Shown: piece by piece, positions 1 through 13,406 of the stretch
Layout of the letters: each line of letters begins with the position of its first letter
Numbering within the stretch: the first letter of the stretch is position 1
IMG/VR virus record: IMGVR_UViG_3300035698_020146
Location: 1-15,157 of that record
Origin: a virus
Length of the DNA stretch: 15,157 nucleotides
Strand: one strand, 5' to 3'
The notes under the pieces: generated by a model
The model's input: only the letters and a program-made list of their open reading frames with translations
The model's database searches: none
Told to the model about the DNA's origin: nothing
Program-made: the position numbers and the translations under genes

Positions 1-127
1 CTGCGGACATATCCGATATACTTTTTTCAAGAGCTTTGACTGTTTCAGTCATTTTTACGAGGGCCTTATCAGAATCAGACAACTTATCGTCTTTGTCTTT
101 TTGGGCTTTCTCGACTGCTTCTTGAAG
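1..127. repeat. Exact 127-nt copy of the window end (15031..15157); circular-closure or terminal-redundancy overlap
   Basis: Direct comparison: ctgcggacatatccgatatac...ctcgactgcttcttgaag is identical at 1..127 and 15031..15157. The unique length is therefore 15,030 bp. Confidence 0.95.
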
Positions 128-316
128 TTTTTTCAGATTAACGTCCTTATCGCTCAAAGTCTTTTGAAGATTTTTAAAATCTTCGGGTTTAATAAACAGC
201 TTGCCGTCAGATGCCTCGATCAGTTTTCCAAAATCTTCGGGACTGATTGAATCTGGCAGGGCTTTCTCATCCAGGGCTAACAGCTTTCTGAACAAGGCTA
301 GTAATTTTTTATCCAT
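1..316 (-). CDS. Scaffolding-like protein, N-terminal part; continues across the junction into 14747..15030 (199 aa when joined)
   Basis: Minus-strand ATG at 316..314 with the frame open to base 1 (MDKKLLALFRKLLALDEKALPDSISPEDFGKLIEASDGKLFIKPEDFKNLQKTLSDKDVNLKKLQEAVEKAQKDKDDKLSDSDKALVKMTE...). 316 + 284 nt = 600 nt, which is in frame with the ORF at 14747. The protein is charged and looks helical, and it sits between the portal and capsid genes. Confidence 0.6.
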   Translation of the reverse strand, partial: MDKKLLALFRKLLALDEKALPDSISPEDFGKLIEASDGKLFIKPEDFKNLQKTLSDKDVNLKKLQEAVEKAQKDKDDKLSDSDKALVKMTETVKALEKSISDMSA

Positions 317-334
317 TTGGATATATTTTAATAT

Positions 335-1720
335 TTAGACTATTTCGTCTTTTTTCTCGACTGGTTTTTCTTCGGGCTTGCTTGTTGCAAATAATTTCAT
401 TTCGGCCAAAATTTCTTGCAATTTTTCTTCGGCGTTTTCAACTCCGCGCAATTCATCAATAGCATCTTTATGACTAATCAAATTATTTTCAATCATTTTC
501 GCATACTGCTCAATCCGATCAGAATTATCTTGGATTAAGAATGGTTGATAGACTGGGTCATTATCATATTTATCAACGCCAAATTTATAAGTCAAAATAG
601 CATTATTCATTTGTCTAAAAGCCTTATCCCAATTTAAACGCATGAATCCGATTAAATCCATCATATCAGAATATTGGTAACTTAGAGAAGTGCCAGACAC
701 ATTCGTTTGGACTTGTCCGGCTGAATGAACAATACCGGTTTTATTTGATATTCGTTTTTCGATAAGATTCAACCAGTTTATAATTTCTTGCCCCTCTTTC
801 AATTCTAAATATTCCATATCATCACTGGCGCCAATTCTGGTTTTTTTCTTTTTACCTCTTTCAATTTTTGTAGTATCGGCCATATCAGATTTGATGACAA
901 TATGCGGTTCGGTGTTTTCTTCAATTCTTTTATCAAAATTTGAGGCATTACGATTATAGGCCTTATCTAATTCGGCTAGCTGTAATATTTTAGATTTGCC
1001 CTCGTGACTATGTGGGTTTGGAAAATTTGGAATCCAAGAAAATGGAATAATTTTGTCCTTATTTTCAACGGTCACTGTTTTTTCGATTGCCTCATCATAA
1101 ACTATAACAGAATGTAAATCGTAATAAGTATATTTATATTTGCCGGACCCGACATAATCTCTAAATGCAAACTGAACTAATCGACCACCACTCCAACCAA
1201 GATAGCATTTTGTGGGGTCGAGTGAAATAATTTGCGCCCTCTTTGTGATAGGGTCTTTAGGATAATATAGACAAGAGGCGCCACCGCATAAAAAATTTAT
1301 ACCTTGCTCGATTAAAATATTTGCTAATTCATAATCGTAATATATAGACAAAATTTCATCCTCATATTTTTGAGATTTTTCGTGCTCTGTTTCTCGAATT
1401 TTTACGCCAACCTCTAACACACCGGTCTGTGGATTACGTGGGAATATACGAGCCATATATCTTTCGATATATTCATTACTGAAATTAAAAACCAGTGCGA
1501 CATCATCGTCAGAATCTTTTGCGTTTAGTTCTGCGTTTGTCCACTGGTCTGAGTCGAGTGCAAAACTTGATAAAATATCAAATGCACGGCTACGTTTCTC
1601 AGTTGTTGAGGTAGCAAATTTTATAAAATTTTTAACTGTAGTTTTGGAATTTCTTGAAGAGTCTTTTAAACTGTTTTCCCGGTCTGTTTCCTGTTTTGTT
1701 TTGTAGAAGAAATTAAGCAT
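335..1720 (-). CDS. Portal protein (putative)
   Basis: 461-aa ORF downstream of TerL and directly upstream of the scaffold and capsid genes. Size and synteny are typical of portals. I recognised no diagnostic motif by eye. Confidence 0.6.
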   Translation of the reverse strand: MLNFFYKTKQETDRENSLKDSSRNSKTTVKNFIKFATSTTEKRSRAFDILSSFALDSDQWTNAELNAKDSDDDVALVFNFSNEYIERYMARIFPRNPQTGVLEVGVKIRETEHEKSQKYEDEILSIYYDYELANILIEQGINFLCGGASCLYYPKDPITKRAQIISLDPTKCYLGWSGGRLVQFAFRDYVGSGKYKYTYYDLHSVIVYDEAIEKTVTVENKDKIIPFSWIPNFPNPHSHEGKSKILQLAELDKAYNRNASNFDKRIEENTEPHIVIKSDMADTTKIERGKKKKTRIGASDDMEYLELKEGQEIINWLNLIEKRISNKTGIVHSAGQVQTNVSGTSLSYQYSDMMDLIGFMRLNWDKAFRQMNNAILTYKFGVDKYDNDPVYQPFLIQDNSDRIEQYAKMIENNLISHKDAIDELRGVENAEEKLQEILAEMKLFATSKPEEKPVEKKDEIV

Positions 1721-1914
1721 ATATCTTGTAGATTTTTTTTATCGAGATATAGTAAACTAGCTAATAGGCTAACCCATAATTTAAACGGTAATAATCGGGG
1801 GCGAGGCTTTAATAAATAGCCTACATCGCGTCTAACTCGTTTCACAAGTTTGCGAGCAACACGCTTGCGGTCTTTGGGGTGTAGTTTTGACATATTTGTG
1901 GATAAGTCACTCAT
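1666..1914 (-). CDS. Hypothetical small basic protein (doubtful; may be a regulatory spacer instead)
   Basis: 82-aa ORF in the 218-nt TerL-portal gap. It is very Arg/Lys-rich and overlaps the portal start by 55 nt. Its first 15 nt after the A of the ATG are the AGTGACTTATCCACA motif that is also found at two promoters. Confidence 0.25.
   Translation of the reverse strand: MSDLSTNMSKLHPKDRKRVARKLVKRVRRDVGYLLKPRPRLLPFKLWVSLLASLLYLDKKNLQDICLISSTKQNRKQTGKTV
1897..1911 (-). promoter_or_regulatory. 15-nt motif AGTGACTTATCCACA containing a perfect DnaA box (TTATCCACA); copy 1 of 3
   Basis: Plus strand tgtggataagtcact. Identical 15/15 to 7857..7871 and 14/15 to 5499..5513. Confidence 0.5.
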
Positions 1915-1938
1915 TCGACAATAATAGCATAATTTAGA

Positions 1939-3306
1939 TTATCCGTCTACAGTGCCATATTTCTTAGTAATTACGGGGATTTTTGAACACGCGATAGCCA
2001 AGGCCATAAGAAAATCAGTTTCTAAATTTGAATCGGCGCGTTGATATGTGGTCATTTCGTCAGCCAATTCAGGAATAAATGGCGATGTTATCAAGCCGGA
2101 ATCGATAACGGCCTGCAAATGGTCAAGAATATAATCTTTTCTGCCACCGCGAAAATCGACCGGACTAGCAATATCCATACACATTTCCCAAAGCGTATCG
2201 CCGACGCCGGTACTGTCCATAAATACTTCTGAGTCACTTTCATAATGGGCTTGTCTAATTTCACTCTCGATTGAACTCCGGGCTTTTTTAGTTGGATTTG
2301 CTTTATTAAAATTTTCCCGACCCTTTTCTGTCCAGGGTAATTGAAACGCCCATTTTTTTGTAATTTGAAAAGGTACTTGCGATTTTTTGATTCTCAAGCC
2401 AACTGTCTGGTCTGAAATACTTCCACGCCGGCCCCGAGCAAGGTCCCAACCCTCGATATATTTTTGACCGGTTTCGATGCCGGCCTCGAGTTCCAAATTA
2501 TTATCAAATAATTTTTCGACACGCGAGGCGAACATCATTTCGGCCGTATCAATAAATTTACCTTTCACGACTTGATTGATTTTGCTGTCGCTCCAAGTTG
2601 AACATAAATAATCAAATAATTTATGATCAACAAAAGGATTTTCATAAGCAGAACCGCCCCGGACATATCCGCCCTTGCGCTTTATATCATTCTTGACACG
2701 ATAATAGGCATTTAATCCTTTTGGGGTAGCGTAAAAATCGAGTTGACTATCGCGCCATTTGCGAGTACGAGGCAATAGAATTTTTTCACGGATGAATTCG
2801 AGGTGACGCTCTAGCGCAATTTCGTCAGCGGAAATATAGCCGTATTCTTTTCCCTCGATGCTTTCACCTTTTCGCTTTGTAGTTTTATATTCAGTGACAG
2901 CGCCGTTAGTAAATCGCATCTGGGTAAATGGGTGCCGGACTATAGATTTTTCCAAATCGCAAAACCAAGGACCTAAAAGCGGACTGTCTTTTATCATGCC
3001 GGCCATTCGTTCTAGAACTAGCTCAGACAATTCCTGGGTAATCGCTACATTTAAGGTTTTGTATTTGGGGCCGTCTAAAAAATGTTGGAGTAAAAACCGC
3101 AGATGTTTTTTGGCAATAATATCAGTCTTGCCCCAACCGTTGCCAGGATGTAATAAATTTTCCCTTTTAACAGATTTTTCGAGCCATTCCTTTTGGCCTG
3201 GATGTGACTTGTAATCTAGAACTAAATCATCAAAAGCAGACCAGTCATTTTTTTCCTGGATGTTTTTAAGTGAAAAAGCGATTATGCGGAAAATCGAGTT
3301 TTGCAT
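1939..3306 (-). CDS. terL: Terminase large subunit
   Basis: 455 aa. Walker-A-like HPGNGWGKTD, Walker-B-like GYISADEIA, and a C-terminal nuclease-type acidic motif FMDSTGVGD. It lies upstream of the portal gene. Confidence 0.85.
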   Translation of the reverse strand: MQNSIFRIIAFSLKNIQEKNDWSAFDDLVLDYKSHPGQKEWLEKSVKRENLLHPGNGWGKTDIIAKKHLRFLLQHFLDGPKYKTLNVAITQELSELVLERMAGMIKDSPLLGPWFCDLEKSIVRHPFTQMRFTNGAVTEYKTTKRKGESIEGKEYGYISADEIALERHLEFIREKILLPRTRKWRDSQLDFYATPKGLNAYYRVKNDIKRKGGYVRGGSAYENPFVDHKLFDYLCSTWSDSKINQVVKGKFIDTAEMMFASRVEKLFDNNLELEAGIETGQKYIEGWDLARGRRGSISDQTVGLRIKKSQVPFQITKKWAFQLPWTEKGRENFNKANPTKKARSSIESEIRQAHYESDSEVFMDSTGVGDTLWEMCMDIASPVDFRGGRKDYILDHLQAVIDSGLITSPFIPELADEMTTYQRADSNLETDFLMALAIACSKIPVITKKYGTVDG

Positions 3307-3312
3307 TAGTAG

Positions 3313-3341
3313 ATAATAGCAAAACTTTCTACTTTAATCAA
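3313..3341 (-). promoter_or_regulatory. Candidate sigma70-type promoter TTGATT-17-TATTAT ending 6 nt before the TerL ATG (possible leaderless mRNA)
   Basis: Minus strand: ttgatt aaagtagaaagttttgc tattat ctacta ATG. The context is A+T-rich, so a chance match is possible. Confidence 0.35.
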
Positions 3342-3551
3342 ACATCACTAAAGTTCGACATTAACATCAAACATCAACATTTACATTAAAACTCTGACAT
3401 TAACACCAAACATCAACATTTACATTAAAACTCTGACATTAACATCAAACATCAACATTTAAGCTTTAAAAGAAAAAAGTGAGCAAACAAGCAAAGCTTT
3501 TCTTAAAACTATTATATTAACACCAAACATCAACATTTATATTAAAACGTT
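3333..3551. repeat. Tandem array with a 39-bp period (about five periods plus a degenerate upstream copy)
   Basis: Unit: gacattaacatcaaacatcaacatttacattaaaactct. It occurs at 3357..3395 and at 3396..3434 (one T/C difference). Period 3 starts at 3435 and matches for 27 nt. Its tail and most of period 4 (3462..3500) are replaced by an aagcttt...aaagctt hairpin of exactly one unit length. A unit-end remnant lies at 3501..3512. Period 5 (3513..3551) is diverged at its edges. Inside each unit ACAT(T/C)(A/T) recurs every 6-7 nt. Confidence 0.85.
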
Positions 3552-3871
3552 GAGAGTGCTCGCTCCGCTCGCAATTAAAGATAACAGACACGAACCTCCT
3601 CAAACCTCCAATATTTCCCTTGGTGTCTGGAGCAAGAAACGGTGGAATATAACCCTTACTGCTCTAACGTGGCATCGCATTACTGGACCGGAGCTTTCTC
3701 TCGGGCTACGCCCTCGACTTCCTAGCGCGCGTCTATATTCAAGTTGCCGGTCATTATTCATTCACAAGACTTAACAGTCAAACCCCTAGGAAGACCGCGA
3801 ACTTGCTCTTAAGAGCAAGATCGCTACAACTACAAAATTTCAAATATCAAGTAAAAAAAAGAAACGAAGTC

Positions 3872-3948
3872 GAGCAATTAAAACAAGCGATTTTATAATT
3901 ATATCGCTAAACCTCAATCAATCATAAAATCGCTTGTTTGAATTGCTC
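3872..3948. repeat. Inverted repeat or hairpin: 24-bp stem with one mismatch and a 29-nt loop
   Basis: gagcaattaaaacaagcgatttta (3872..3895) pairs with taaaatcgcttgtttgaattgctc (3925..3948). The single mismatch is A/G. Confidence 0.8.
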
Positions 3949-4155
3949 TCTAATATCTTACTTTAAAATGGAAGTCGCTCCGAGATTATTATAATTATTC
4001 ACATTTTTTTTATGACCGTCTACGCTCCGCTACGACCGTCACAAAAAAAACGCATCACAATTACAATAAATCTCTACGCTCCAATTAGAAAATTTTAAAG
4101 GTTGGCGCAAGCGCCCTCGACTAATTACTTTCGCTCCGCTCATAATAAAATGAGA

Positions 4156-4232
4156 GGAAAATAGAGAAGTACTAAAAACCCTTTTCCTAGTCGTGTTCGA
4201 CTAGCCGGGTTTTTAGTACTTCTCTATTTTCC
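4156..4232. repeat. Perfect 26-bp inverted repeat with a nested 7-bp hairpin
   Basis: ggaaaatagagaagtactaaaaaccc (4156..4181) is the exact reverse complement of gggtttttagtacttctctattttcc (4207..4232). The inner element ctagtcg-tgtt-cgactag is also perfect. Confidence 0.9.
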
Positions 4233-4283
4233 ATTTATCATTCCTTGCTACACAAAATAAAATTCGTGGGACGTGGCGCCGTA

Positions 4284-4425
4284 GATTGTTATCGCATAAC
4301 GTATATTTCACGAAGTAGGCATTTAGATATTACTAAACTTAAAGTTCTCAGCATCTCAGCAATACTTAATTTCAAAATAAAAATCCTCAGCAACTTCGCG
4401 AGAATATGCGTTATGCGAAACAATC
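4284..4425. repeat. Long imperfect inverted repeat (about 31 bp) enclosing 78 nt that carry three CTCAGCA copies
   Basis: 4284..4315 pairs with 4394..4425, including a perfect 10-bp core tcgcataacg/cgttatgcga. There are two single-base bulges, one T-G pair and one A-C pair. CTCAGCA occurs at 4347, 4355 and 4386. Confidence 0.75.
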
Positions 4426-4776
4426 CCAGAATAAAAACAGAAATCAATCGCCTATCGGGACAGTCAAACTGTCACCGTTACGCTCGGAAAATGTTCGAGA
4501 ATATAGCAACTTCACAGACCGAGCGTTTCCTCCGTGCTCCGCTTAACTGTCGAGGCGGGCACGGGACTTTTTTCGGGGCTTCGCCCCTCAGGGTTTGTGC
4601 ACGCATTTGTTGTGTAATGCCGTGCACCAAGCATTCACATACCAGTGTTAAAAATTCGAGGGCAAACAATATAATCATTTCATTGAGCCATTTGTACGCT
4701 CGTTTCACTCGCTACTATCGGGCGCTCCGCGCCCCTCGCTCGCTACGCTCGCGGGGCGCTCGTCTGGCTCGCGCCC

Positions 4777-4809
4777 AAAAAAAAACGTTGACTGGCATCA
4801 ACGTTTTTT
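4777..4809. terminator. Bidirectional intrinsic terminator
   Basis: aaaaaaaaacgttga-ctggca-tcaacgtttttt: an 8-bp G/C-containing stem extended by an A-run and a T-run, so a U-tract follows the hairpin on both strands. It lies 13 nt after the stop of the 180-aa minus-strand gene. Confidence 0.75.
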
Positions 4810-4821
4810 AAAATATTTAAT

Positions 4822-5364
4822 TTATAACAAAACGCCTTGTTGAATATCGAGTCCGTACTCGTTAGTGGCTCGTTGAAAAATTGCTTTTATATTATTCTCG
4901 TCTAACTGCTCGCCATTCATAATTTGGTAGCGCATTTTAGCAAGTTTTTCCAAATCTGAAACCTCTATCTTGTAAGTGTTAGATTTAAATTTCAATAAAA
5001 GTTGATCATAAGCGAGGTCCAATAATTCAACGGTTCTTTTCATATGCACGGCTTGGGATGTCACTTCTTCCAGTACATCATTTTTGATAATTTGGGTGGC
5101 AAGATTTGTCTTATAAGTAATAAACCCTTTGAAATGCCGGCATAAACTAGCCTCTGAAACTGACACGCCGAATTCATCTTTTGCGCGTTCGCAAATTCTG
5201 GCATAATGGGCGCCGTTTTTTCGCCAATCGTGGATTTCTTTCAAAATTCCTGATGAGCATATAGTACAGCGTGAGGAACAGATTTTTTTGAAATTAATCA
5301 ATTCATCGGGCATTACGGTCGTTCCGCAATTTTCCTTTTTTTCTTCGACTTCTTTATTTTCCAT
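4822..5364 (-). CDS. Hypothetical protein with a Cys-rich N-terminus, an HTH-like segment and a helical C-terminus; small-terminase candidate by position only
   Basis: 180-aa ORF with CSSRCTIC and further Cys/His residues, an HTH-like stretch GVSVSEASLCRHFKG, and a helical C-terminal half. It is the last gene before TerL apart from the 1.5-kb non-coding stretch. It has its own promoter and terminator. Confidence 0.5.
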   Translation of the reverse strand: MENKEVEEKKENCGTTVMPDELINFKKICSSRCTICSSGILKEIHDWRKNGAHYARICERAKDEFGVSVSEASLCRHFKGFITYKTNLATQIIKNDVLEEVTSQAVHMKRTVELLDLAYDQLLLKFKSNTYKIEVSDLEKLAKMRYQIMNGEQLDENNIKAIFQRATNEYGLDIQQGVLL

Positions 5365-5465
5365 TGCGATTTTTAAAGTTATCCACTCGCTTGATAGTAA
5401 GTGAATGTAAGTAAGGTAAGTTATTTATAGAGTTAGAACTTCCTTAGAGAGTTATAACTAACTTA

Positions 5466-5494
5466 AGAGTAACGTTTTTGAAAATTTTTGTCAA
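5466..5494 (-). promoter_or_regulatory. Candidate promoter TTGACA-17-TACTCT for the 180-aa gene
   Basis: Minus strand: ttgaca aaaattttcaaaaacgt tactct. The -35 is preceded, 4 nt upstream, by AGTGACTTATACACA (motif copy 2). The -10 is weak: only T1, A2 and T6 match. Confidence 0.45.
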
Positions 5495-5498
5495 GTGG

Positions 5499-5536
5499 TG
5501 TGTATAAGTCACTAGTTATCCCCATACTTATGCACA
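5499..5536. promoter_or_regulatory. DnaA-box cluster
   Basis: TTATACACA on the minus strand (5499..5507), TTATCCCCA on the plus strand (5516..5524, 8/9 match), and TTATGCACA on the plus strand (5528..5536). A further TTATCCACT (8/9) lies at 5379..5387. The reference consensus is TTATNCACA. Confidence 0.5.
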
Positions 5537-5573
5537 GCATCTTTCTACGAACAAACTCCGAACAAACATATAG

Positions 5574-5621
5574 TAAAAAAAAGTCCTCCCAATATATTAT
5601 AACATATAATCCGGAGGACTT
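5574..5621 (-). terminator. Intrinsic terminator closing the early gene block
   Basis: Minus strand: aagtcctcc-(23-nt loop)-ggaggactt followed by tttttttt. It lies 27 nt after the stop at 5648. The loop is large for a terminator. Confidence 0.55.
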
Positions 5622-5647
5622 GTCAACATAATTAATTAAATTTTAGT

Positions 5648-5839
5648 TTAGTACGGCGGTTGATTTCCACCTTGTGAATTAGATGCTTTATTTTTTGTAT
5701 TCCAGGAGATAGCTTGCATTTCCTGAAAATGACATTCATAGCCGGGCCGATTATTACGGTAAAGTTTGCATACAGGTGTACACGCGACAGGCTTATCGGG
5801 TGTGCTCATGAAAGGACAGATTTTAGGATTTTCCGCCAT
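5648..5839 (-). CDS. Small Cys-rich protein (hypothetical)
   Basis: 63-aa ORF with an ATG start. Residues C8, C20, C24, C36 and H38 suggest a metal-binding knuckle. It is followed by the terminator at 5574..5621. Confidence 0.5.
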   Translation of the reverse strand: MAENPKICPFMSTPDKPVACTPVCKLYRNNRPGYECHFQEMQAISWNTKNKASNSQGGNQPPY

Positions 5840-5882
5840 TTGGTTTTTAGCTTAATAATAAAATTAGTTTTAATTGGCGTGG

Positions 5883-5907
5883 GTCCAAAAATTGGACATT
5901 TTTTTTT
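5883..5907 (+). terminator. Hairpin plus T-run oriented on the plus (non-coding) strand
   Basis: gtccaa-aaa-ttggac followed by a and then a T9 run on the plus strand. It sits in the 72-nt gap between two minus-strand genes. Confidence 0.3.
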
Positions 5908-5911
5908 GGAA

Positions 5912-6103
5912 CTAGCCCACATCAGCCCGTGGTTGAAATTTGGCAGTTTTCTTGTGAATAACCCATTCCCCCTTGAATTCGTGCCAGACATACATATTAT
6001 TGTCATTGCCCAGGCCATAAATCCAATAGTAACCAGACGCATTTGGTTGGGGGACTGTGGTTATTTCGATGATTTGCATATGTATTTTGTCGAGGGTCCG
6101 CAC
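5912..6103 (-). CDS. Hypothetical small protein (probable ATG start at 6079, giving 55 aa)
   Basis: The track ORF starts at a GTG at 6103, and the first ATG is at 6079. The sequence YYWIYGLGNDNNMYVWHEFKGEWVIH looks like a real protein. It overlaps the end of the upstream gene by 19-43 nt. Confidence 0.5.
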   Translation of the reverse strand: MRTLDKIHMQIIEITTVPQPNASGYYWIYGLGNDNNMYVWHEFKGEWVIHKKTAKFQPRADVG

Positions 6104-6324
6104 TTGTCCTTGCGCGTTAACTCAATTTCGAGGATATCAGAATAATCGTGGAGCTTGGTAATATTATAATCAACACCAGAACGCGGATGATTTTCGCGCC
6201 GGCTCACATTGATGTCACGCAGTCCAAAATTCCGAATAATTACACTCTGGCCAGTAGCAACGCCAGGCAAAATGCCTTTTTCCTTTTTGTTAAATTCGAT
6301 GTAAAGTTTATCTGGGTATCTCAT
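6061..6324 (-). CDS. Hypothetical protein
   Basis: 87-aa ORF whose ATG lies 1 nt after the stop of the upstream gene (TAA-T-ATG), consistent with operon packing. Confidence 0.55.
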   Translation of the reverse strand: MRYPDKLYIEFNKKEKGILPGVATGQSVIIRNFGLRDINVSRRENHPRSGVDYNITKLHDYSDILEIELTRKDKCGPSTKYICKSSK

Positions 6325-6325
6325 A

Positions 6326-6790
6326 TTAATGAATCTGAAGCAGGATAATTAGAATATCAATCTTTCCTGCTAAAACAGAATTGATATAACGCTCTATTTT
6401 TTCGACCTTTGCGATTTTACAATTATGACGTATAGCTATCTGTTTTAACGTCTTCCGCTCGGGACTTCTAACTGTTTGCAATGTACGATTTAATATAATC
6501 GTTCTTGCAATTCTAACCTGAATAGATTCTTTTGTCATAAGTTTTTGCTTTTTAAATTCATTAATTAATTTATTACGCTCAAAATTATTAGTGCAGTCGC
6601 AGAATGCGCTGATCATATCGCTTTCAATAAACGCCAGTCTTGACTCCTTGTCTTCCTCGTTTTTATCGGGGCAGGTGAATGTTTGACCGATAGCCCAGGC
6701 GATAAAATTGAAACAGCCGTCTGTCGATAAATGACGCTCCGGCTCATCAGATTTTAGCGCGCCAGGCTTGTAGGGTTTTGGACATTTCAT
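6326..6790 (-). CDS. Putative DNA-binding protein with a sigma-70 region-4-like HTH at the C-terminus
   Basis: 154 aa. SPERKTLKQIAIRHNCKIAKVEKIERYINSVL resembles the region 4.2 pattern (ER...tl.eIa...g.s...V.qIe.ra...L), from memory. It abuts the upstream gene with no gap. Confidence 0.5.
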   Translation of the reverse strand: MKCPKPYKPGALKSDEPERHLSTDGCFNFIAWAIGQTFTCPDKNEEDKESRLAFIESDMISAFCDCTNNFERNKLINEFKKQKLMTKESIQVRIARTIILNRTLQTVRSPERKTLKQIAIRHNCKIAKVEKIERYINSVLAGKIDILIILLQIH

Positions 6791-7099
6791 TTATTTTATA
6801 CTTTTATATTTAATGATCCCTCCGGGTGATTCTTCGTATTTTTCAATAATTTTTTTTGCTTTGCTTTTAAGCGATTTAGTTGGCCACTCATAACCACCAT
6901 AAGAGTCCCAATTAGTCGGGTTTTCAATCTGTTTGATATTATTGCTTAACAAAACATCGACTAAAATTCTTAATCTTAACAATTCATCAGTAGAAAAATC
7001 TAATGTTTGTTTTTGTTTATCCGTTATAAATAATATCGGATGAGCGTCTTCGTCAAAAAAACAGTCTTTGCCTCTGTCCGTGTCGATGTAAAGTTCCAT
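6791..7099 (-). CDS. Hypothetical protein
   Basis: 102-aa ORF with an ATG start, contiguous with the downstream gene. Confidence 0.6.
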   Translation of the reverse strand: MELYIDTDRGKDCFFDEDAHPILFITDKQKQTLDFSTDELLRLRILVDVLLSNNIKQIENPTNWDSYGGYEWPTKSLKSKAKKIIEKYEESPGGIIKYKSIK

Positions 7100-7200
7100 A
7101 AAATTATATTTATTTATAAATTCAAGTTTGTACTTTGTAGCTTTTGGCCTATAAGAGTGCGGTGGTTTGGCGTGAATTTTAGTTATTGCTTATTGCACGC

Positions 7201-7449
7201 CTAGATTTTGAGTCCAGGCTGGGTGGGGCTTTCACCTTTTTTGCATAGCTTTGCATACATATCGAATGATAGAGGTTTTACAGGTTTTAGCCCGGCTAGC
7301 TTGCATTTTCTCTTTAGCTTTGTTCGGTAGCGATTATACGCCGGCCAGAGTTGCATGCGATTTGCACTAGCGAGCGCCTGCCCTTGGAGCGAATATTTTG
7401 ACGCTTTAGTATTATACATTACATTTTTGCTATATCTTATTATTGACAT
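7201..7449 (-). CDS. Hypothetical small basic protein
   Basis: 82-aa ORF with an ATG start. It is Lys/Arg-rich, and it is the only ORF in a 400-nt interval. Confidence 0.45.
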   Translation of the reverse strand: MSIIRYSKNVMYNTKASKYSLQGQALASANRMQLWPAYNRYRTKLKRKCKLAGLKPVKPLSFDMYAKLCKKGESPTQPGLKI

Positions 7450-7463
7450 TTTTTTTCGTTACC

Positions 7464-7495
7464 TCGGGGCATCATATCGATGCCCCGATTTTATT
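7464..7495 (+). terminator. 10-bp G+C-rich hairpin with its T-run on the plus strand
   Basis: tcggggcatc-atatc-gatgccccga followed by ttttatt on the plus strand. On the minus (coding) strand no U-tract follows the hairpin. Confidence 0.4.
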
Positions 7496-7497
7496 AT

Positions 7498-7788
7498 TTA
7501 GGCGTTTAGGGGTTCGACTTGTAGTATATAGAATAGATTGACCGTTCTTCGTCTTTTCGTTACGTCCCCGTGCTTGTCTTTCATTTCGATGAGCGTATAG
7601 GACTTTAGGGCTTTTTCCCCTTTCTTGACTTTAAATCCGTCCTGAATCCACTGTTTGAACGTCTTGCAGTTTAGTTGTGGATTATAGTTTTTAGCCTCAG
7701 CCTCTCCATAGCGCTCTACTATTTGGGCGCCGACGCACTCTGCTGTGGACTTACTTCCGCGGTACATTGTAGTGGTTAATTTTGGCAT
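7498..7788 (-). CDS. ArdC-N-like (DUF1738-like) ssDNA-binding domain protein
   Basis: 96 aa. CKTFKQWIQDGFKVKKGEKALKSY matches the remembered ArdC N-domain core (W-l-T-f-k-Q...G-g-q-V-r-K-G-E-K-g). The protein is shorter than a full ArdC N-domain. Confidence 0.55.
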   Translation of the reverse strand: MPKLTTTMYRGSKSTAECVGAQIVERYGEAEAKNYNPQLNCKTFKQWIQDGFKVKKGEKALKSYTLIEMKDKHGDVTKRRRTVNLFYILQVEPLNA

Positions 7789-7828
7789 AGTGTTTTCTTT
7801 AGTGGAGGTTATCCCCTCCTCTATATAT

Positions 7829-7871
7829 AGTATAGCATAGCGGTGACCGATGTCAATGTGGATAAGTCACT
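7829..7871 (-). promoter_or_regulatory. Promoter TTGACA-16-TATACT abutted upstream by AGTGACTTATCCACA (motif copy 3, perfect DnaA box)
   Basis: Minus strand: agtgacttatccaca ttgaca tcggtcaccgctatgc tatact. It lies about 35 nt upstream of the ATG at 7788. The leader contains a ggagg-ggataa-cctcc hairpin. Confidence 0.6.
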
Positions 7872-7887
7872 GATAGATTTTACCATA

Positions 7888-8103
7888 TTAATAAGGAATA
7901 TATCCTTCCATAGCCTCAGCGCATTGAGGAGAGTCCGAACAATACCAAACCTCGTGACCAAACCGTGTTTTAACAATTTGTTTTTGACCATAACAGATTC
8001 TAATGTACCGTATCATAAAATCATCATAGCGAACACGTCCACAAACGGCACAACGATGCCGTACATTTCTTTTACTTCTCGCTTTTTGCTCTTTTGAAAA
8101 CAT
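7888..8103 (-). CDS. Small zinc-ribbon protein (first early gene)
   Basis: 71 aa with the Cys pairs CAVCG and YCSDSPQC. It is the first ORF downstream of the consensus promoter. Confidence 0.6.
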   Translation of the reverse strand: MFSKEQKARSKRNVRHRCAVCGRVRYDDFMIRYIRICYGQKQIVKTRFGHEVWYCSDSPQCAEAMEGYIPY

Positions 8104-8113
8104 CCTTTTTTAA

Positions 8114-8141
8114 ATTGTTGACTATCCGGATAGTCAACAAT
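8114..8141. promoter_or_regulatory. 28-bp perfect palindrome (operator or leader hairpin)
   Basis: attgttgactatcc|ggatagtcaacaat. It lies between the promoter at 8162..8190 and the ATG at 8103. It shares the GACTAT core with the direct repeats at 8170..8182 and 8204..8216. Confidence 0.7.
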
Positions 8142-8161
8142 CGATTAATAGTTATAATCTA

Positions 8162-8190
8162 ATTATACAGTAGACTATGGCCATTGTCAA
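8162..8190 (-). promoter_or_regulatory. Perfect-consensus sigma70 promoter TTGACA-17-TATAAT (early promoter)
   Basis: Minus strand: ttgaca atggccatagtctactg tataat. The -35 is at 8190..8185 and the -10 at 8167..8162. It lies directly after the late-operon terminator and before the early genes. Confidence 0.75.
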
Positions 8191-8224
8191 CATTGTTTAA
8201 TATGTAGACTATTGCCAGGCAAAA

Positions 8225-8261
8225 CAAAAAACCCGGGCCGTATGACAAACCCGAGTTTTTT
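8225..8261 (-). terminator. Intrinsic terminator closing the late/lysis operon
   Basis: Minus-strand RNA: cucggg-(12-nt loop)-cccggg with one G-U pair, which would be a C-A mismatch on the plus strand. It is followed by uuuuuuguuuug and has an A-run upstream. Confidence 0.65.
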
Positions 8262-8306
8262 GCGGAGCACAGACAAAGAAGAAAACACCCTTTTTACCAA
8301 TCAATG

Positions 8307-8486
8307 CTAAATATCAGTTTTTAGTTTTTGGTACACATTGAGTCCAGTGTACAAACCAATAACCGCGTAAGCGATTTTAATATAATCCGATGCGGACAGC
8401 CTATTTATAAGAATCAGTAAAAAGGTTAAGAGAAGTAATAGCGCGGATAGCAAAAATTTGCGACCGCCGAATGTGTTAATAGTCAT
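8307..8486 (-). CDS. 59-aa two-TM membrane protein (holin- or spanin-like), below the ORF-track size cutoff
   Basis: Hand translation: MTINTFGGRKFLLSALLLLLTFLLILINRLSASDYIKIAYAVIGLYTGLNVYQKLKTDI. Its ATG overlaps the endolysin stop as ATGA. Confidence 0.6.
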   Translation of the reverse strand: MTINTFGGRKFLLSALLLLLTFLLILINRLSASDYIKIAYAVIGLYTGLNVYQKLKTDI

Positions 8487-9139
8487 ATACCTTTATTTTT
8501 TAATGCCGGGATACGAAGAACGTCCCCGGGGTGAATTAGATTAGGATTTTTTAAAACATCCTCATTGACTAAAAATATTTCCATATAGTGACCGCCGTTA
8601 CCGTAATATTTTTCGCTAATGGACCAAAGTGTGTCACCGTGCTTAACGATATATTGACCTAAGAATGTTTTTAAAGCATCATCCTCATAATTGAATAAAC
8701 TGATTTCTTGCTCGCTATTCATTTTCATAAATTCGAGGGGGTCGATATAATAACCATTGACCTTGATCCCGAAATGTAAATGATAACCATTGACACCACG
8801 CCAGAATCCAGAACGGCCACTAAATCCAACAATATTGCCCCGTTTTACTTTCATCCCTAATTCAACATCAATACTGCTTAAATGGGCCAGGAGAGCGATT
8901 ACAGTGCCTTTTTGGTCGTCTGTGGCCTCAATGTAGATAGCTTTACCATAGCCATAATTGCGCTCAGGCGTGATTCTAATGATTTTACCGTCAAAAGGGG
9001 CCTTTAGAGGCGTTAATTTTGGCATTGCGTAGTCTACACCCTTATGTGTGGCTAATTTGCCTTGATACATAAATTTTACACCAAATTTTTGTGTAAGCGG
9101 GTATTTGCTAGGCTCGAGGAATGGTAGCGCTATTTTCAT
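8483..9139 (-). CDS. Endolysin: M23 metallopeptidase domain plus C-terminal LysM domain
   Basis: 218 aa. HKGVDYA (HxxxD) and GYHLHFGI (HxH) are the M23 zinc motifs. YIVKHGDTLWSISEKYYGNGGHYMEIFLVNEDVLKNPNLIHPGDVLRIP is a typical LysM domain. Confidence 0.9.
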   Translation of the reverse strand: MKIALPFLEPSKYPLTQKFGVKFMYQGKLATHKGVDYAMPKLTPLKAPFDGKIIRITPERNYGYGKAIYIEATDDQKGTVIALLAHLSSIDVELGMKVKRGNIVGFSGRSGFWRGVNGYHLHFGIKVNGYYIDPLEFMKMNSEQEISLFNYEDDALKTFLGQYIVKHGDTLWSISEKYYGNGGHYMEIFLVNEDVLKNPNLIHPGDVLRIPALKNKGI

Positions 9140-9314
9140 AATGTTTATAGATTAAAAAATTATCAGCTAATAAAAACGCGAATGCAAGACACAGGCTAGA
9201 AGTGAACCAAGACTGGCAGGTGAATGAAAAACCGATAGAGAATCCAGAAATAAATAAAATAGCATATTTTTTAAATTCAGTCTTCAGAATATTATTATGA
9301 ATATTTTTGCGCAT
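9108..9314 (-). CDS. 68-aa two-TM membrane protein (holin candidate)
   Basis: Hydrophobic stretches YAILFISGFSIGFSF and SSLCLAFAFLLADNFLI. It overlaps the endolysin start by 32 nt. Confidence 0.6.
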   Translation of the reverse strand: MRKNIHNNILKTEFKKYAILFISGFSIGFSFTCQSWFTSSLCLAFAFLLADNFLIYKHYENSATIPRA

Positions 9315-9412
9315 TATAAATTTTTTAAATTATTGATAATAACAAAAATTAAATATATAGTAAGACTCGAATAGATCATAATAAAATATAATATTATCGT
9401 TTCTCTAGTCAT
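9314..9412 (-). CDS. 32-aa single-TM micro-ORF (tentative)
   Basis: Hand translation: MTRETIILYFIMIYSSLTIYLIFVIINNLKNL. Its stop overlaps the next ATG as TAATG, and its ATG overlaps the previous stop as ATGA. The A+T-rich context makes chance ORFs possible. Confidence 0.35.
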   Translation of the reverse strand: MTRETIILYFIMIYSSLTIYLIFVIINNLKNL

Positions 9413-9498
9413 AAATTTAAAAAACAAATTAATAATACTATAAAAATTAAAAAACTTATTATGCATACTTTTAAAATTTTCAAAATGTCACTAATCAT
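9409..9498 (-). CDS. 29-aa single-TM micro-ORF (tentative)
   Basis: Hand translation: MISDILKILKVCIISFLIFIVLLICFLNL. Its ATG lies 15 nt after the stop of the 72-aa gene, and its stop overlaps the next ATG (ATGA). Confidence 0.35.
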   Translation of the reverse strand: MISDILKILKVCIISFLIFIVLLICFLNL

Positions 9499-9513
9499 TC
9501 TTTAATGAAATTA

Positions 9514-9732
9514 CTAAGTTTTTTTTTGTAGAGCCTCCTTAATCCAAGAAATATCCGTTTGAGTAGTTTCGACAATAGTATAAACCTTATTAATTGGACA
9601 ATCCTTTTGTGCAATTTCAAGCATATTAATTCTTGCAGTTTGATTTTTATAGATATAGACAACAAGACTTATACAAGAGGCAGAAAGGAATCCGACGAGG
9701 AGTAAAAGTTGTGCGAAGCTAATTTCAAACAT
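9514..9732 (-). CDS. 72-aa protein with an N-terminal TM helix (holin-, antiholin- or spanin-like)
   Basis: The N-terminal segment FAQLLLLVGFLSASCISLVVYIY is hydrophobic. The gene abuts the tail-fibre-like gene and heads the lysis cluster. Confidence 0.6.
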   Translation of the reverse strand: MFEISFAQLLLLVGFLSASCISLVVYIYKNQTARINMLEIAQKDCPINKVYTIVETTQTDISWIKEALQKKT

Positions 9733-9733
9733 A

Positions 9734-10240
9734 TTAAGATATACACATAATAGTTAATTTTTCCGCTGTAACTATAGAACCAGAATTATCGCAAGTGCAA
9801 TATAATTCAAAATAGTCACCTGGTTGCATAGTGACCAGAGCAATCCCACTCACGTTTGCAACATAACCGGAAACGCCTAGCGTATGTGTTGATGAACCGA
9901 GAGGATCAACTGTGCCATTTATTGCGCCGGCCATAGTCACAAGTATATTGCTAGTATCAGATGAAAAAGAAACATTTCCGGTTATTGTAACAAGTGCCGG
10001 CCGGGTCCCAGTATATGTTAGCTTGTTATCTTCGTGAGTAAAATTTTCAAGTGACTTGTAGGCTGTAGTACCGGCCACTTTATAATAGGTGCCAGCAGTT
10101 GTGACAGTAGTGCCAGCACTAGAACTTATATAATAATAAAAATTACTAATCGCGCTAGTAATACGAACAGTCAGGATCGCCTTAGCGATTAAATTTAGTG
10201 CGTTTACAATATTATTCATAAAATTATATAGAATTTTCAA
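9734..10240 (-). CDS. Putative tail fibre or receptor-binding protein
   Basis: 168 aa, rich in Thr/Ser/Gly and likely beta-strand. It is the last structural gene before the lysis genes. The ending VTMQPGDYFELYC recalls C1q/TNF-like jelly-roll domains, but only impressionistically. Confidence 0.5.
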   Translation of the reverse strand: MKILYNFMNNIVNALNLIAKAILTVRITSAISNFYYYISSSAGTTVTTAGTYYKVAGTTAYKSLENFTHEDNKLTYTGTRPALVTITGNVSFSSDTSNILVTMAGAINGTVDPLGSSTHTLGVSGYVANVSGIALVTMQPGDYFELYCTCDNSGSIVTAEKLTIMCIS

Positions 10241-11624
10241 TTCCTAAAAGTTCGTATAAATAAATTAACTCGATGTCTTCGACCTCACCGTCATTGCTTG
10301 AATCTGCGACAGTAACCTCAAATTCAATCGAGCTACATTTGTTTAATAAATCTTTGAGTGCGACAACAGTCCGGACCGAAGAATTTACTGTATTAGTCAT
10401 TAATGTTGTAGCGAAAGTGGAGGCTTGATCTATCTTAGATTTTATTATCACCGACCCATTATCACCTATAGGCTTATGTTTTAATATTAAATACGCCGGA
10501 GTATGTCGCTTTAGTATTGCCGGTGTAGTAAAAACACCACTAGTTATTCGAGGAGCAGAGGAATATTCATAACCGGTGTACACGTAAAATTTGTCTTCAT
10601 TATCGTCATAAGTATAGACTGTTATATTTCCGCCAAAATTATCTATATTGCAAATATTTTCAGAAAAAAGCTTGACTGTATAAAGACCATTTTTTCGATT
10701 AATTCTCAATAGATTAGTGTAGTCTACAACAATATATATATAGAATTCGTCAGAGTGTAAAATATTAAGTTGAGCGACGCCAGATTGAGAATAAGAAGTA
10801 ATATATTTCAAATCAGATTTGTCCCATTCATAAAATAAAATAGTATTACCTTTTTTATTTACAATAATAATTTTATTGTCAAATATATCAAAATCCGACA
10901 AAGTAGCTTTTTTAAATTGACGAATTACTTTAGGCTCATCATCATTACCAAATTTTAAGAATTGATCATTATGAGTATAATTTGTTAAAGTAAAATAAAT
11001 TTCGCCGTCTAACTGTCTTACTTTTTTAATATCGTACTCAGTAGGTGACTCATAGACTAGCGTAAAAGTTGTACCGTCGGATGTCTTAACAATTTCGTCA
11101 GCAGTATAAATATAAAGTATGCTGTCATCGGTCAAAAAATAACCAAGAGGAATAGAGTAAACCCAGTCAGTATTTTCCACAAAAGCAGTATATGGAGCGG
11201 TTTCGTCAGCATATAATTTCAGCCCTGAATCGTCAAGCCAACACATTAAAATGCCCTCATACAAAACCACCATATATGGAGAGGTAGAACCGTCGGCAAA
11301 ATTAAATTGTTCGTGTAGAGTATCGATTGGCGTTTGTAGAAATTTCAATTCAACCCGGCTATTAGTATCACTACGCAATAAAATATAACAGCGTTCTAGC
11401 GTACTGAATTGATATGTAGAAGATATAGGCTTTAAAGCTGTAGACTTAAGGTTCTCGTGAGTTGTTTTAAATAAATTTTCAGCAAGTTTTAATTTTTGAT
11501 TATCTTGATCTGGCTCGAGTCCAATACAAGTTTTTAATTTGTTAGGCTTAGACGCATCATAATAATCTTGACCTATACCACCGTCAAGCTTGCTAAATTT
11601 AATTTGTTTATATTTTTTACTCAT
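10224..11624 (-). CDS. Putative tail structural protein (tubular tail or nozzle class by position)
   Basis: 466-aa ORF that overlaps both neighbours (8 nt and 17 nt). It lies in the structural operon, and I recognised no motif. Confidence 0.55.
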   Translation of the reverse strand: MSKKYKQIKFSKLDGGIGQDYYDASKPNKLKTCIGLEPDQDNQKLKLAENLFKTTHENLKSTALKPISSTYQFSTLERCYILLRSDTNSRVELKFLQTPIDTLHEQFNFADGSTSPYMVVLYEGILMCWLDDSGLKLYADETAPYTAFVENTDWVYSIPLGYFLTDDSILYIYTADEIVKTSDGTTFTLVYESPTEYDIKKVRQLDGEIYFTLTNYTHNDQFLKFGNDDEPKVIRQFKKATLSDFDIFDNKIIIVNKKGNTILFYEWDKSDLKYITSYSQSGVAQLNILHSDEFYIYIVVDYTNLLRINRKNGLYTVKLFSENICNIDNFGGNITVYTYDDNEDKFYVYTGYEYSSAPRITSGVFTTPAILKRHTPAYLILKHKPIGDNGSVIIKSKIDQASTFATTLMTNTVNSSVRTVVALKDLLNKCSSIEFEVTVADSSNDGEVEDIELIYLYELLGIENSI

Positions 11625-12225
11625 TCAATTTTATAATTTTAAGTAGGCCAAGATAATGCTTATTTAAATCATCACGAATCAACCGTAAATCTTTAGCAGA
11701 AACATCCGGCACATCATCCTTGCTAGTTGCAGTAAGCGTAATTAATTTATTGAAATATCTATATTGAGCGCCAATATAAACAAGCTCCATTAGCTTTGCC
11801 GGCACATCTGTGTCAGTTCCGGCCACAATAGGAGGCCCGTCGTCTGTGAGAGTAGGCTCTATAAATCCTTTTTTGAAATATATTGCTACTGTATCGACAG
11901 CCGTAAACTTTTGCGTAAATTGAATGACTTCATTAAAAATATACCACCTTTGCTCAGAAACAGCGTTGACATTATCTAAATCGTCCAAATTTTTAAGTTC
12001 CCGAACCTCGTCATCATCAATACGGATAGCATCGACTTCAAGATTGTTAGTAGGAAGTGACAGCGTCTTGTCACCAATTACAGTTGACTGAGTTGAATCG
12101 ATTGTATCGACAGAAAATAAATTAGACAAAAAATTAATTGAGTCAAGAATCGGCTGTGTAACTGTAGCCGATGTGTCGCCTAAATATTCTCGAACGATAG
12201 CTGTAATTTCAGTCAAATTTTTCAT
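11617..12225 (-). CDS. Putative head-tail adaptor or connector protein
   Basis: 202-aa acidic ORF between the head and tail genes. The assignment is by position only. Confidence 0.45.
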   Translation of the reverse strand: MKNLTEITAIVREYLGDTSATVTQPILDSINFLSNLFSVDTIDSTQSTVIGDKTLSLPTNNLEVDAIRIDDDEVRELKNLDDLDNVNAVSEQRWYIFNEVIQFTQKFTAVDTVAIYFKKGFIEPTLTDDGPPIVAGTDTDVPAKLMELVYIGAQYRYFNKLITLTATSKDDVPDVSAKDLRLIRDDLNKHYLGLLKIIKLNE

Positions 12226-12282
12226 AGTATTTTAGAGATTACTTTGTTAATTGCTCCGGCAATGCCGGAGTGTATCAATAAA

Positions 12283-12645
12283 CTAATCTTTTTGTTTTTC
12301 TCTTGGATGCGGAGCTTTACCGTCAAAAACAATTAGCGCCGGGTCTTCACTCATAACAGCAATGACAGCTTTGTCTTTTGTAAAATGGTGATTACGCCCC
12401 TCGATATAAATCTTTTTTCTTCCAACACATACCGAATGGATTCCGTGACGTAAATCTTTACGAATAAAATCAACACCTTTGGCATCAGCTTTTGCCTTAG
12501 CTTGTGCCTCAGCATCTGCTTTAGCCTCAGCATCAGCCTCAGCCTTGACTCTTGCCTCTTCTTTGGCTAGTGCCTCAGCATCTGCTTTAGCTTTTTTAGC
12601 CTCGGCATCAGCTAACGCTTTGGCTTGTGGATTTTGTTGTGACAT
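12283..12645 (-). CDS. Hypothetical protein with an N-terminal Ala/Lys/Glu/Asp low-complexity repeat
   Basis: 120 aa. Residues 8-56 read AKALADAEAKKAKADAEALAKEEARVKAEADAEAKADAEAQAKAKADAK, followed by a globular-looking C-terminal half. A 7-bp hairpin (12254..12270) follows the gene. Confidence 0.6.
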   Translation of the reverse strand: MSQQNPQAKALADAEAKKAKADAEALAKEEARVKAEADAEAKADAEAQAKAKADAKGVDFIRKDLRHGIHSVCVGRKKIYIEGRNHHFTKDKAVIAVMSEDPALIVFDGKAPHPREKQKD

Positions 12646-12662
12646 AAAATATATTTATTAAT

Positions 12663-13382
12663 TTATAATTTAGGCGAAAAACCCATTATCCTCCGCCTAG
12701 TTAATTGAAAAACTTTGTTAATGTTATCAGCCGTCATTGCCTCTTTGTAAATTCTTATCATTGCAATTTGGAGTTCGTTCCCACCTGATTGACCGGCTAA
12801 ATTTCCGATTGTTATTCCCTCAGCCGGGTCGCAATATTCACCATATAATTCTGATTCGTCATCAGTATCGATTAATACACCGTCTTGATATAAACAATGC
12901 GCGCCGGCTACAATGTCACAAGTCACAGCCACAAAATGCCAGGCGCTACGAGTCATAGACGCTGAGCCACCGGACATTGATATTTTATTTTCGTCATCAT
13001 CGTAGAATCCGACAATAACTCTTTTTTGTCCGTCATTAATATAAAATTCATTAGATCCTCCAAAATTAATTATAATGCCGTCAGTAGTGGGAAGAGCAGG
13101 CATCGCCACCCAGACCAAATATGTAATTTGAGTTTTTTCTAAATATAGAGATTTGTCGGCGCTATCAATTTTTATTAAGGCACTGTCGTCATCCTTACAA
13201 AGTGACGGAGTTCTTGAACCATATAATTTTTCCCGAGTTATATTCCCGGTTGTAATTAAATGATTTGCATTACCAGACAAATCCGGGACCAAAGTAGTCC
13301 GAGCCGGCTGTCCTGGGTATAATTCTGCTTGCAAATTATCACGATAATCTGGCAGAGAAAGAAAAGGCGCATTGTAGTCCAT
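12663..13382 (-). CDS. LamG / concanavalin-A-like lectin fold protein (capsid decoration or adhesin candidate)
   Basis: 239 aa. VPDLSGNANHLITTG, WHFVAVTCD..GAHCLYQDGVLI and ITIGN...GNELQIAMIRIYKEAMTADNINKVF match the Laminin_G_3-type pattern, from memory. It lies immediately downstream of the capsid gene. Confidence 0.7.
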   Translation of the reverse strand: MDYNAPFLSLPDYRDNLQAELYPGQPARTTLVPDLSGNANHLITTGNITREKLYGSRTPSLCKDDDSALIKIDSADKSLYLEKTQITYLVWVAMPALPTTDGIIINFGGSNEFYINDGQKRVIVGFYDDDENKISMSGGSASMTRSAWHFVAVTCDIVAGAHCLYQDGVLIDTDDESELYGEYCDPAEGITIGNLAGQSGGNELQIAMIRIYKEAMTADNINKVFQLTRRRIMGFSPKL

Positions 13383-13406
13383 AGATTTATTTAATTTATA
13401 GGGGGC

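Follow-up and report, generated by a model that had tools for sequence, protein, structure and literature searches.

The window analysed here, a stretch of 15,157 nt of viral DNA (IMG/VR record IMGVR_UViG_3300035698_020146, positions 1 to 15,157), represents a tailed phage of ~15.0 kb that belongs to an undescribed family of minimal phages. Ahead of its gene for a 180-aa protein, p180, four sequences resembling the bacterial DnaA box cluster between positions 5379 and 5536, and their best-supported function is to place the p180 promoter region under the control of DnaA, within a small DnaA regulon of the phage. Judged from the sequence, we give this reading about an even chance. It is carried by the boxes themselves, by their statistical excess, by the conservation of their positions and syntax, and by their fixed geometry relative to promoter elements. 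A first-pass annotation of the window had preferred a replication origin at this site and had mentioned transcriptional regulation by DnaA as a second option; it is the second that fits the anatomy best, with the boxes standing in fixed register to -35 and -10 elements.

Checking the sequence confirmed all four boxes where they had been annotated. Box 1 (5528..5536, plus strand) is an exact match, TTATGCACA, which reads TGTGCATAA on the gene-sense minus strand, and forms the distal member of a tandem double box; box 2 (5516..5524, plus strand; TTATCCCCA, 8/9) has the same orientation and lies 3 bp from it. Box 3 (5499..5507, minus strand; TTATACACA, exact) is inverted relative to these two and ends 4 nt upstream of the -35 element of a promoter that we call P2. 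Box 4 (5379..5387, plus strand; TTATCCACT, or AGTGGATAA on the sense strand, 8/9) lies 14 nt upstream of the p180 ATG. Scored against the DnaA-box 9-mer TTATNCACA / TTATCCACA, the cluster holds two exact and two 8/9 matches. The comparison with shuffled sequence proposed in the first-pass annotation came out in two ways. Exact boxes exceeded every shuffle, with six copies of TTATNCACA in the window against 0.78 expected (six or more in 0 of 200 dinucleotide shuffles), as did a cluster of two exact and two near boxes (0 of 1000); four matches of any kind within 160 nt were found in 15 of 1000. With one mismatch allowed, the genome-wide density was not above expectation (25 matches versus 19.6). 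By inspection, five of the six exact boxes lie outside long open reading frames (ORFs), at ORF 5’ ends or between ORFs.

To place these numbers in a family context we used about 30 related contigs of 13–16 kb, labelled L001–L031 (the window being WIN): L001–L014 come from IMG/VR and were reached via TerL at 57–81% identity, L015–L020 come from JGI metagenomes and were reached via p180 alignment, and L021–L031 are GTDB genomes or contigs. The 32 loci (303 kb) were oriented, and homologues of the window proteins were mapped onto them. When all 9-mers were counted without bias and compared with an order-3 Markov expectation, TTATCCACA was present 37 times, in 19 loci, where 3.9 copies were expected, and GTTATCCAC 32 times where 1.8 were expected. 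The top 9-mers were one TerL coding word, GTTATCCAC, TTATCCACA and a GC-rich motif, AGCGNAGCG, and TTATCCACA is among the most over-represented non-coding words of the family. While the exact consensus is enriched about 8–9-fold, its 27 single-mismatch variants are not enriched, and tolerated degeneracy is therefore not usable as evidence.

The exact boxes recur in a small number of places: (A) upstream of p180, (B) at the junction between TerL and orf82/portal (9 loci), (C) at the early promoter of p96, a 96-aa protein, and (D) just upstream of TerL. An exact box occurs within 340 nt upstream of the p180 homologue in 15 of the 25 relatives with a readable upstream region, against a chance expectation of ~0.015 per locus, which is our estimate from the Markov expectations. 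The four-position architecture of the window is kept in seven sequences (WIN, L003, L004, L016, L017, L018 and L021) despite ~66% identity of the region. In their alignment (A5) the columns of boxes 1, 2 and 4 are 81–87% identical against a mean of 66% (0.84 for box 1 and 0.87 for box 4). The position of box 1 is conserved in all six relatives of this clade. That of box 2 is occupied in relatives by TTATCCACC, TTATCCACA or TTTTGCACA, and that of box 3 by TT(A/T)TNCACA, 1–4 nt before TTGACA. The counterpart of box 4 is a perfect TGTGGATAA in L003 and L017 (-18) and near-perfect in L004 and L016.

Two properties that were not part of the first-pass search pattern, the flanks of the box and the spacing of pairs, bear on its identity. 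Among 46 unique exact sites, A is found at -2 in 34 and G at -1 in 26, and conservation stops there. The resulting pattern, A-G-TTATCCACA, matches box R4 of the E. coli MG1655 oriC (R4 AGTTATCCACA, R1 GTTATCCACA, R2 GGTTATACACA, read from the genome) and agrees with the flank preference of high-affinity oriC boxes (G at -1, A/G at -2). Tandem pairs, counted as boxes in the same orientation with at most one mismatch each, number 11 across the family at gaps of 2–3 bp and none at 0, 1 or 4–10 bp; the expectation is ~0.35 for each gap, and none of 100 shuffles attained the observed count. The spacing equals the double-box rule of E. coli, whose DnaA is almost confined in vivo to double boxes with a gap of 2 or 3 bp (Stringer, Fitzgerald & Wade 2024, PMC11317965). 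Furthermore, equivalent sites carry boxes in either orientation, which points to duplex DNA and not RNA as the target. A family consensus of exactly TTATCCACA, these flanks and this strict spacing strengthen the first-pass identification, and the boxes are very probably DnaA sites.

The clade of seven sequences shares one promoter layout. On the gene-sense (minus) strand it runs TGTGNATAA, 3 nt, NGTGGATAA, 8–10 nt, TT(A/T)TNCACA and 1–4 nt, followed by TTGACA, 17 nt, TACTCT, a G-poor leader of ~100 nt, and NGTGGATAA 9–14 nt before the ATG; window boxes 1–4 occupy exactly the four box positions. The putative promoter P2 (5466..5494, minus strand) has its TTGACA -35 at 5494-5489, a 17-nt spacer and a weak TACTCT -10 at 5471-5466. 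The -35 is invariant in all 7 aligned sequences and the -10 columns are 83% identical (A5); a consensus promoter scan missed P2 because the -10 matches at only 3 of 6 positions. A second putative promoter, P1 (5574..5626, minus strand), is of consensus type and lies upstream. It consists of TTGACA (5626-5621), a 19-nt spacer and TGT-TATAAT (5601-5596), that is TTGACA-19-TGTTATAAT, and is nested in the hairpin that terminates the operon before it (stem 5620-5613 / 5589-5582, with the T-run at 5581-5574). The same nesting of P1 in a terminator is found in L003, L004, L016 and L021. Its -10 sits in the terminator loop, and transcripts started at P1 would miss the 5’ arm of the stem. By inspection, the boxes sit between P1 and P2. 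The dnaA gene of E. coli has a similar layout, with boxes between its promoters P1 and P2.

Just upstream of the double box, two copies of TTTGTTCG lie in an 11-nt phase (5548..5566, minus strand); the pair is also present in L004 and L018, and a related pair in L021. The leader between P2 and box 4 (5388..5465, minus strand) contains repeats of the TTAC/TAAC type and is G-poor (8% G, sense strand), and its predicted RNA fold was not significant (z = -1.5). In a more distant clade (L007, L009–L012, L014, L023, L026, L029 and L031) the p180 leader is instead a conserved polypurine tract, e.g. AAGAAAAGAAAAGGAAGCGAAAAGAAAAGAATCGA, in the place of the G-poor TTAC/TAAC leader of the window clade. 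Across the relatives, the strength of the p180 -10 goes with the distance of the box: where the -10 is weak (TACTCT, TACACT or TACCTT) the box lies 1–4 nt from the -35, and where it is TATAAT or TATGAT the box lies 10–18 nt away or is missing. This pattern suggests that DnaA would act as an activator at P2.

Altogether, these features are consistent with a model in which host DnaA, probably as cooperative dimers or oligomers, would assemble on the double box, where it could contact or occlude RNA polymerase at P2 and block read-through from P1. Expression of p180 would thereby be tied to the DnaA status of the host, and single boxes might act alike at the p96, TerL and orf82/portal promoters, so that the phage would have a small DnaA regulon of its own. 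Both the identity of the binder as DnaA and the direction of the regulation are our inferences. The arrangement resembles the double-box promoters regulated by DnaA in E. coli (dnaA P1/P2, nrdAB, mioC and purH among others; PMC11317965) in its same-orientation pairs of TTATCCACA-type boxes 2–3 bp apart and in the location of boxes beside or between core promoter elements. It differs from them in that the boxes are on a phage genome and not a chromosome, that an additional, inverted box abuts the -35 while a fourth stands shortly ahead of the start codon, and that the regulated gene would be a phage packaging or DNA-binding gene in a host that is probably a CPR (candidate phyla radiation) bacterium. 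Precedents for promoters regulated by DnaA include pR and pO of phage lambda (PMC11317965, PMC3985674). According to references in PMC3985674, host DnaA binds boxes near lambda promoters and stimulates transcriptional activation of ori-lambda; like lambda, the window phage would use host DnaA boxes beside promoters, and its control of transcription and replication may be linked. Lambda is unlike the window family in encoding an initiator and a helicase loader (O and P) and in having iterons, for which the family has no recognisable equivalents, and in carrying its boxes downstream of promoters, with no tandem-plus-inverted array at the -35.

Several points weigh against DnaA control of the p180 promoter. 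P1 and P2 were assigned as promoters from conservation, and the sign of regulation is guesswork from a small sample. The host is itself inferred, and the motif was compared with the E. coli/universal consensus, which may not be that of the host’s DnaA. In principle, a conserved phage DNA-binding protein could recognise the same motif, be it p180 or p63a, a Cys-rich 63-aa protein encoded just upstream of the box region. Finally, about 6 of the 25 relatives carry no credible box upstream of p180: there are none in L009, L011, L024, L026 and L029, and in L012, which has an array in the non-coding gap between p180 and TerL, the region upstream of p180 has no boxes. DnaA control would therefore be dispensable or replaced in box-less relatives.

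Boxes were also found at other promoters. At the p96 promoter (7857..7865, minus strand), TTATCCACA directly abuts the -35 (7856-7851) of TTGACA-16-TG-TATACT; the same arrangement occurs in L001 and, with a gap of 9–10 nt, in L003 and L015. Between the TerL stop and the start of orf82/portal, TTATCCACA (1897..1905, minus strand) follows closely on an extended -10 (TGCTATTAT) and stands a short way before the ATG, and this junction carries a box in L001, L005, L006, L007, L015, L019, L022 and L025 as well. A further box, TTATTCACA (3995..4003, plus strand), is flanked by A8/T8 runs in the p180–TerL gap, and perfect boxes stand at the TerL-proximal end of the gap in L010, L012, L014 and L031. 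In many relatives the TTGACA -35 of the p180, p96 and TerL promoters is preceded by a box ending 0–10 nt upstream, and a conserved register of boxes to -35/-10 elements is seen at four different promoters.

Three exact boxes of the window share a longer 15-nt motif, AGTGACTTATNCACA (minus strand; 1897-1914, 5499-5516 and 7857-7874), in which AGTGAC precedes box 3 and likewise the boxes at 1897 and 7857. Its GTGAC portion is similar to one half of the GGTNACC palindromes clustered at early promoters in L001–L003, a hint that a phage regulator and DnaA might share a composite site. The operators at early promoters differ from the boxes: they comprise a 26-bp ATAGTC palindrome (8115-8140), ATAGTCTAC repeats and GGTNACC. 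In the early control region upstream of a gene for a 71-aa protein (minus strand), a perfect TTGACA-17-TATAAT promoter (8190-8162) is flanked by two copies of ATAGTCTAC (8170-8178 and 8204-8212), beyond which the perfect palindrome TTGTTGACTATCCGGATAGTCAACAA is found; repeats and palindrome differ from the DnaA boxes and probably serve a phage repressor as operators. At the packaging genes, an extended -10 (TGcTATTAT, TATACT or TATGAT) ends 6–7 nt before the TerL and orf82 ATG, as seen at 3307-3330 and 1915-1940 of the window and at the TerL starts of L001, L004–L006, L010, L014, L015 and L031. This suggests that the packaging genes may be expressed from leaderless mRNAs.

The alternative that had been preferred before, that the box cluster is the phage’s replication origin or serves as both promoter and origin, supposes that host DnaA on the boxes opens the A+T-rich leader between boxes 3 and 4 and loads the host helicase; transcription from P1 or P2 may assist, either by lambda-type transcriptional activation or by R-loop priming of the ColE1 type. 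We consider it possible but doubtful. Its premise, that there is no recognisable replication initiator or polymerase, holds: profile searches with PHROGs and Pfam detected no polymerase, helicase, primase, Rep or integrase among the window proteins, nor was any of these, or an initiator, found among 70 accessory ORFs of the relatives, bar an HTH_36 / DnaD_N-like gene of L027 and L028, both from Moranbacteria bins. This sole replication-like gene found in the family encodes 174 aa (L027, 99-620) and ends immediately upstream of tandem boxes, CGTGGATAA-gtc-GGTG(G/T)ATAA, which favours an origin there. The box-flanked segment 5388-5488 is 72% A+T against 62.5% for the genome and is strand-asymmetric, and in relatives with an inverted p180–gap–TerL block the region is a junction of divergent transcription. 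In L012 the array within the gap comprises five boxes (9762-9851) ~180 nt upstream of TerL, all in the same orientation with 2–3 bp spacings (TTTTCCACA-gt-TTTTCCCCA ... TTATCCACA-tag-TTATCAACA-gt-TTATTAACA). With a tandem pair spaced by no more than 3 bp (3 bp in the window), 4–5 boxes within ~160–300 bp and an adjacent A+T-richer stretch, the region is like the basal unwinding system of oriC (PMC8287927); it differs in having no DnaA-trio run and no strongly unstable unwinding element, in not being universal in the family, and in having no dnaA or dnaN neighbourhood. DnaA-trios have the form 3’-NAN-5’, and a basal unwinding system has at least three contiguous ones within 0–16 bp of a box (PMC8287927). 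Trio runs beside 48 exact boxes had a mean length of 2.46, no longer than the background (2.34), and neither the window boxes nor their homologues showed a conserved run. The leader is in the 96th–98th percentile of low duplex stability (nearest-neighbour), and at least 10 sites in the genome are less stable. GC skew, which the first-pass annotation had suggested computing, was obtained around the genome and proved uninformative, being dominated by one-strand transcription: the cumulative curve falls monotonically because all genes are on one strand, and the detrended minimum at 4969 (maximum 12314) reflects the C-rich gap. An origin should be universal, whereas L009, L011, L024, L026 and L029 have no boxes at the site; the fixed register of boxes at four promoters, with single boxes at three promoters other than that of p180, also speaks against it. 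Essential cis functions are better sought in the universal non-coding gap, which has tandem repeats, hairpins and a motif restricted to one strand. Auxiliary DnaA boxes accompany the iteron origins of plasmids and phages such as P1 oriR, pSC101, F and RK2. The window shares with these the presence of DnaA boxes on a mobile replicon and, elsewhere in its genome, 39-nt tandem repeats (3347-3553). It is unlike them in that no Rep gene or family was detected in the window or the relatives’ accessory ORFs and no iterons lie within 5379-5536; a distance of 1.8 kb separates the cluster from the 39-nt repeats, which adjoin TerL and may equally be a packaging site. In sum, we found no specific support for placing the origin at the cluster, where trios are not enriched and stability is not minimal. 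A tentative idea, which we likewise doubt, is that the family, having no initiator of its own, replicates from a miniature oriC-like, DnaA-only origin in the P1/P2 region of the packaging operon, with the same complex firing replication and switching on the packaging genes.

The remaining explanations would take DnaA, or its regulatory role, out of the picture. The boxes could be operators or recognition sites of a conserved phage protein, p180 or p63a, with their DnaA-box identity a coincidence or mimicry; were p180 a small terminase they would form a cosB- or pac-like array, and were it a late activator, its operators. Both are core genes that adjoin the site in nearly all relatives, the strongly conserved helix-turn-helix (HTH) of p180 could keep its target motif constant, and the first-pass reading had looked specifically for DnaA boxes, an ascertainment bias. 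In lambda cosB, gpNu1 sites R3-R2-R1 lie upstream of the small-terminase gene, and the two direct sites and one inverted site just upstream of p180 are, by analogy, like these three short repeats with one inverted. The window motif is unlike cosB, however, in being the DnaA consensus and in occurring at non-packaging promoters, among them the early p96 promoter far from the packaging genes. The unbiased 9-mer count returned the exact universal DnaA box as the family consensus, and flanks and double-box spacing match E. coli R4 and DnaA. Box-less relatives still have p180 and p63a, and profile and fold searches assigned p180 to no terminase or regulator family; a phage binder is, we think, unlikely. 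A main role as a datA-like sink, in which the many copies of phage DNA made during infection would titrate host DnaA and shut down initiation on the host chromosome, is rather improbable. Titration of the datA type is established in E. coli (PMC11317965), and selection on the exact high-affinity consensus and not its variants, together with several boxes per genome, would suit a sink. Such a role leaves unexplained the register with -35/-10 elements and start codons and the four-position architecture, and each genome has only 3–6 boxes. Chance matches in A+T-rich intergenic DNA would agree with the one-mismatch count, but a chance origin is hardly credible and effectively refuted by the comparative data: no shuffle (0/200 and 0/1000) reached the observed values, an exact box stands at the same site in 15 of 25 relatives, and the spacing rule is strict.

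DnaA control of the p180 promoter would act on a gene (4822..5364, minus strand) whose product has a Cx3Cx2C...H motif that is invariant across the relatives, together with a conserved HTH and a long helical hairpin. A hairpin (4784-4805) followed by a T-run makes up an intrinsic terminator (4777..4805, minus strand) immediately after the stop codon, and p180 is therefore monocistronic. The protein matched nothing in Pfam or PHROGs, nor in a hidden Markov model search against PDB sequences. Its AlphaFold2 model has a pLDDT (predicted local distance difference test) of 68, and Foldseek found no significant match in the PDB, with a weak full-length likeness to the G20c and P74-26 small terminases (E about 1–5). 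The remote homologues (n = 101) share only a generic Zn-ribbon and HTH region. Mainly from synteny, p180 is probably a small terminase or another DNA-binding protein. The AlphaFold2 model of p63a (pLDDT 52) was unusable.

No relative departs from the order p180, gap, TerL, not even those with inverted blocks. In L009, L010, L011, L012, L014, L026 and L031 the whole block is inverted against the remaining genome, and its breakpoints coincide with the box-bearing junctions at its two ends, one upstream of p180 and one downstream of TerL. The gap (3307-4821 in the window; 1.5 kb, about 10% of the genome) is universal in the family at 0.5–1.6 kb. It shows no nucleotide-level alignment between relatives, yet in each of them it has the GC-rich motif GCGNAGC. 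A 188-aa ORF within it (4245-4811, plus strand), called as a gene on some contigs, was rejected as low-complexity and Cys/Arg-rich in this non-aligning sequence. GCGNAGC is strictly strand-specific there: in the window, the gap has 8 copies on the sense strand and none on the antisense strand, and the remaining 13.5 kb have 0 and 3. The gap also contains long near-perfect hairpins (3872-3948 and 4156-4232) and, adjoining TerL, the 39-nt tandem repeats in four copies; Rfam returned only sub-threshold miRNA-like hairpin matches. It is a candidate pac/cos site and/or origin.

Bases 1-127 exactly repeat 15031-15157, and the window is therefore a circularly assembled genome of ~15,030 bp. All its long ORFs are on the minus strand. 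PHROGs and Pfam named the portal (335-1720), the major head protein (13497-14741) and an M23 + LysM lysin (8483-9139). The early 96-aa protein p96 (7498-7788), with a box abutting the -35 of its promoter, is ArdC-N-like (PF08401, the N-terminal ssDNA-binding domain of the anti-restriction factor ArdC; E = 2.3e-5). TerL (1939-3306) had no PHROGs match and owes its name to a strongly conserved 455-aa homologue (57–82% identity) directly upstream of the portal in collinear relatives. No tRNAs were found in the window, and no integrase in any family member. A whole-genome megablast against GenBank phages and a direct search of IMG/VR with p180 gave no match, and a homologue search with p154 recovered only p154 itself. 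Seven of the 11 GTDB matches sit in bins labelled Patescibacteria/CPR (Moranbacteria, Parcubacteria), and a CPR/Patescibacteria bacterium is therefore the probable host; the biology of phages of such bacteria is almost unexplored. L028 lies at the end of a 65.8-kb Moraniibacteriota contig (JAAXXZ010000003.1) and may be a prophage.

Promoters controlled by DnaA and replicons assisted by it are already known; what is new is the variant in an undescribed minimal-phage family. To our knowledge, the DnaA boxes on lambda and P1 are accessories to phage-encoded initiators only. Here, exact DnaA boxes with the correct spacing are retained at the main promoters of a whole family of minimal tailed phages in which no replication genes can be recognised. 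Should DnaA bind these boxes, the phages would use the replication-initiation state of the host as a direct cue for the timing of gene expression, and possibly of their own replication, which would help to explain how a 15-kb caudovirus does without replication genes. Were the DnaA-only origin real, it would be a phage replicon run entirely by the host’s chromosomal initiator.

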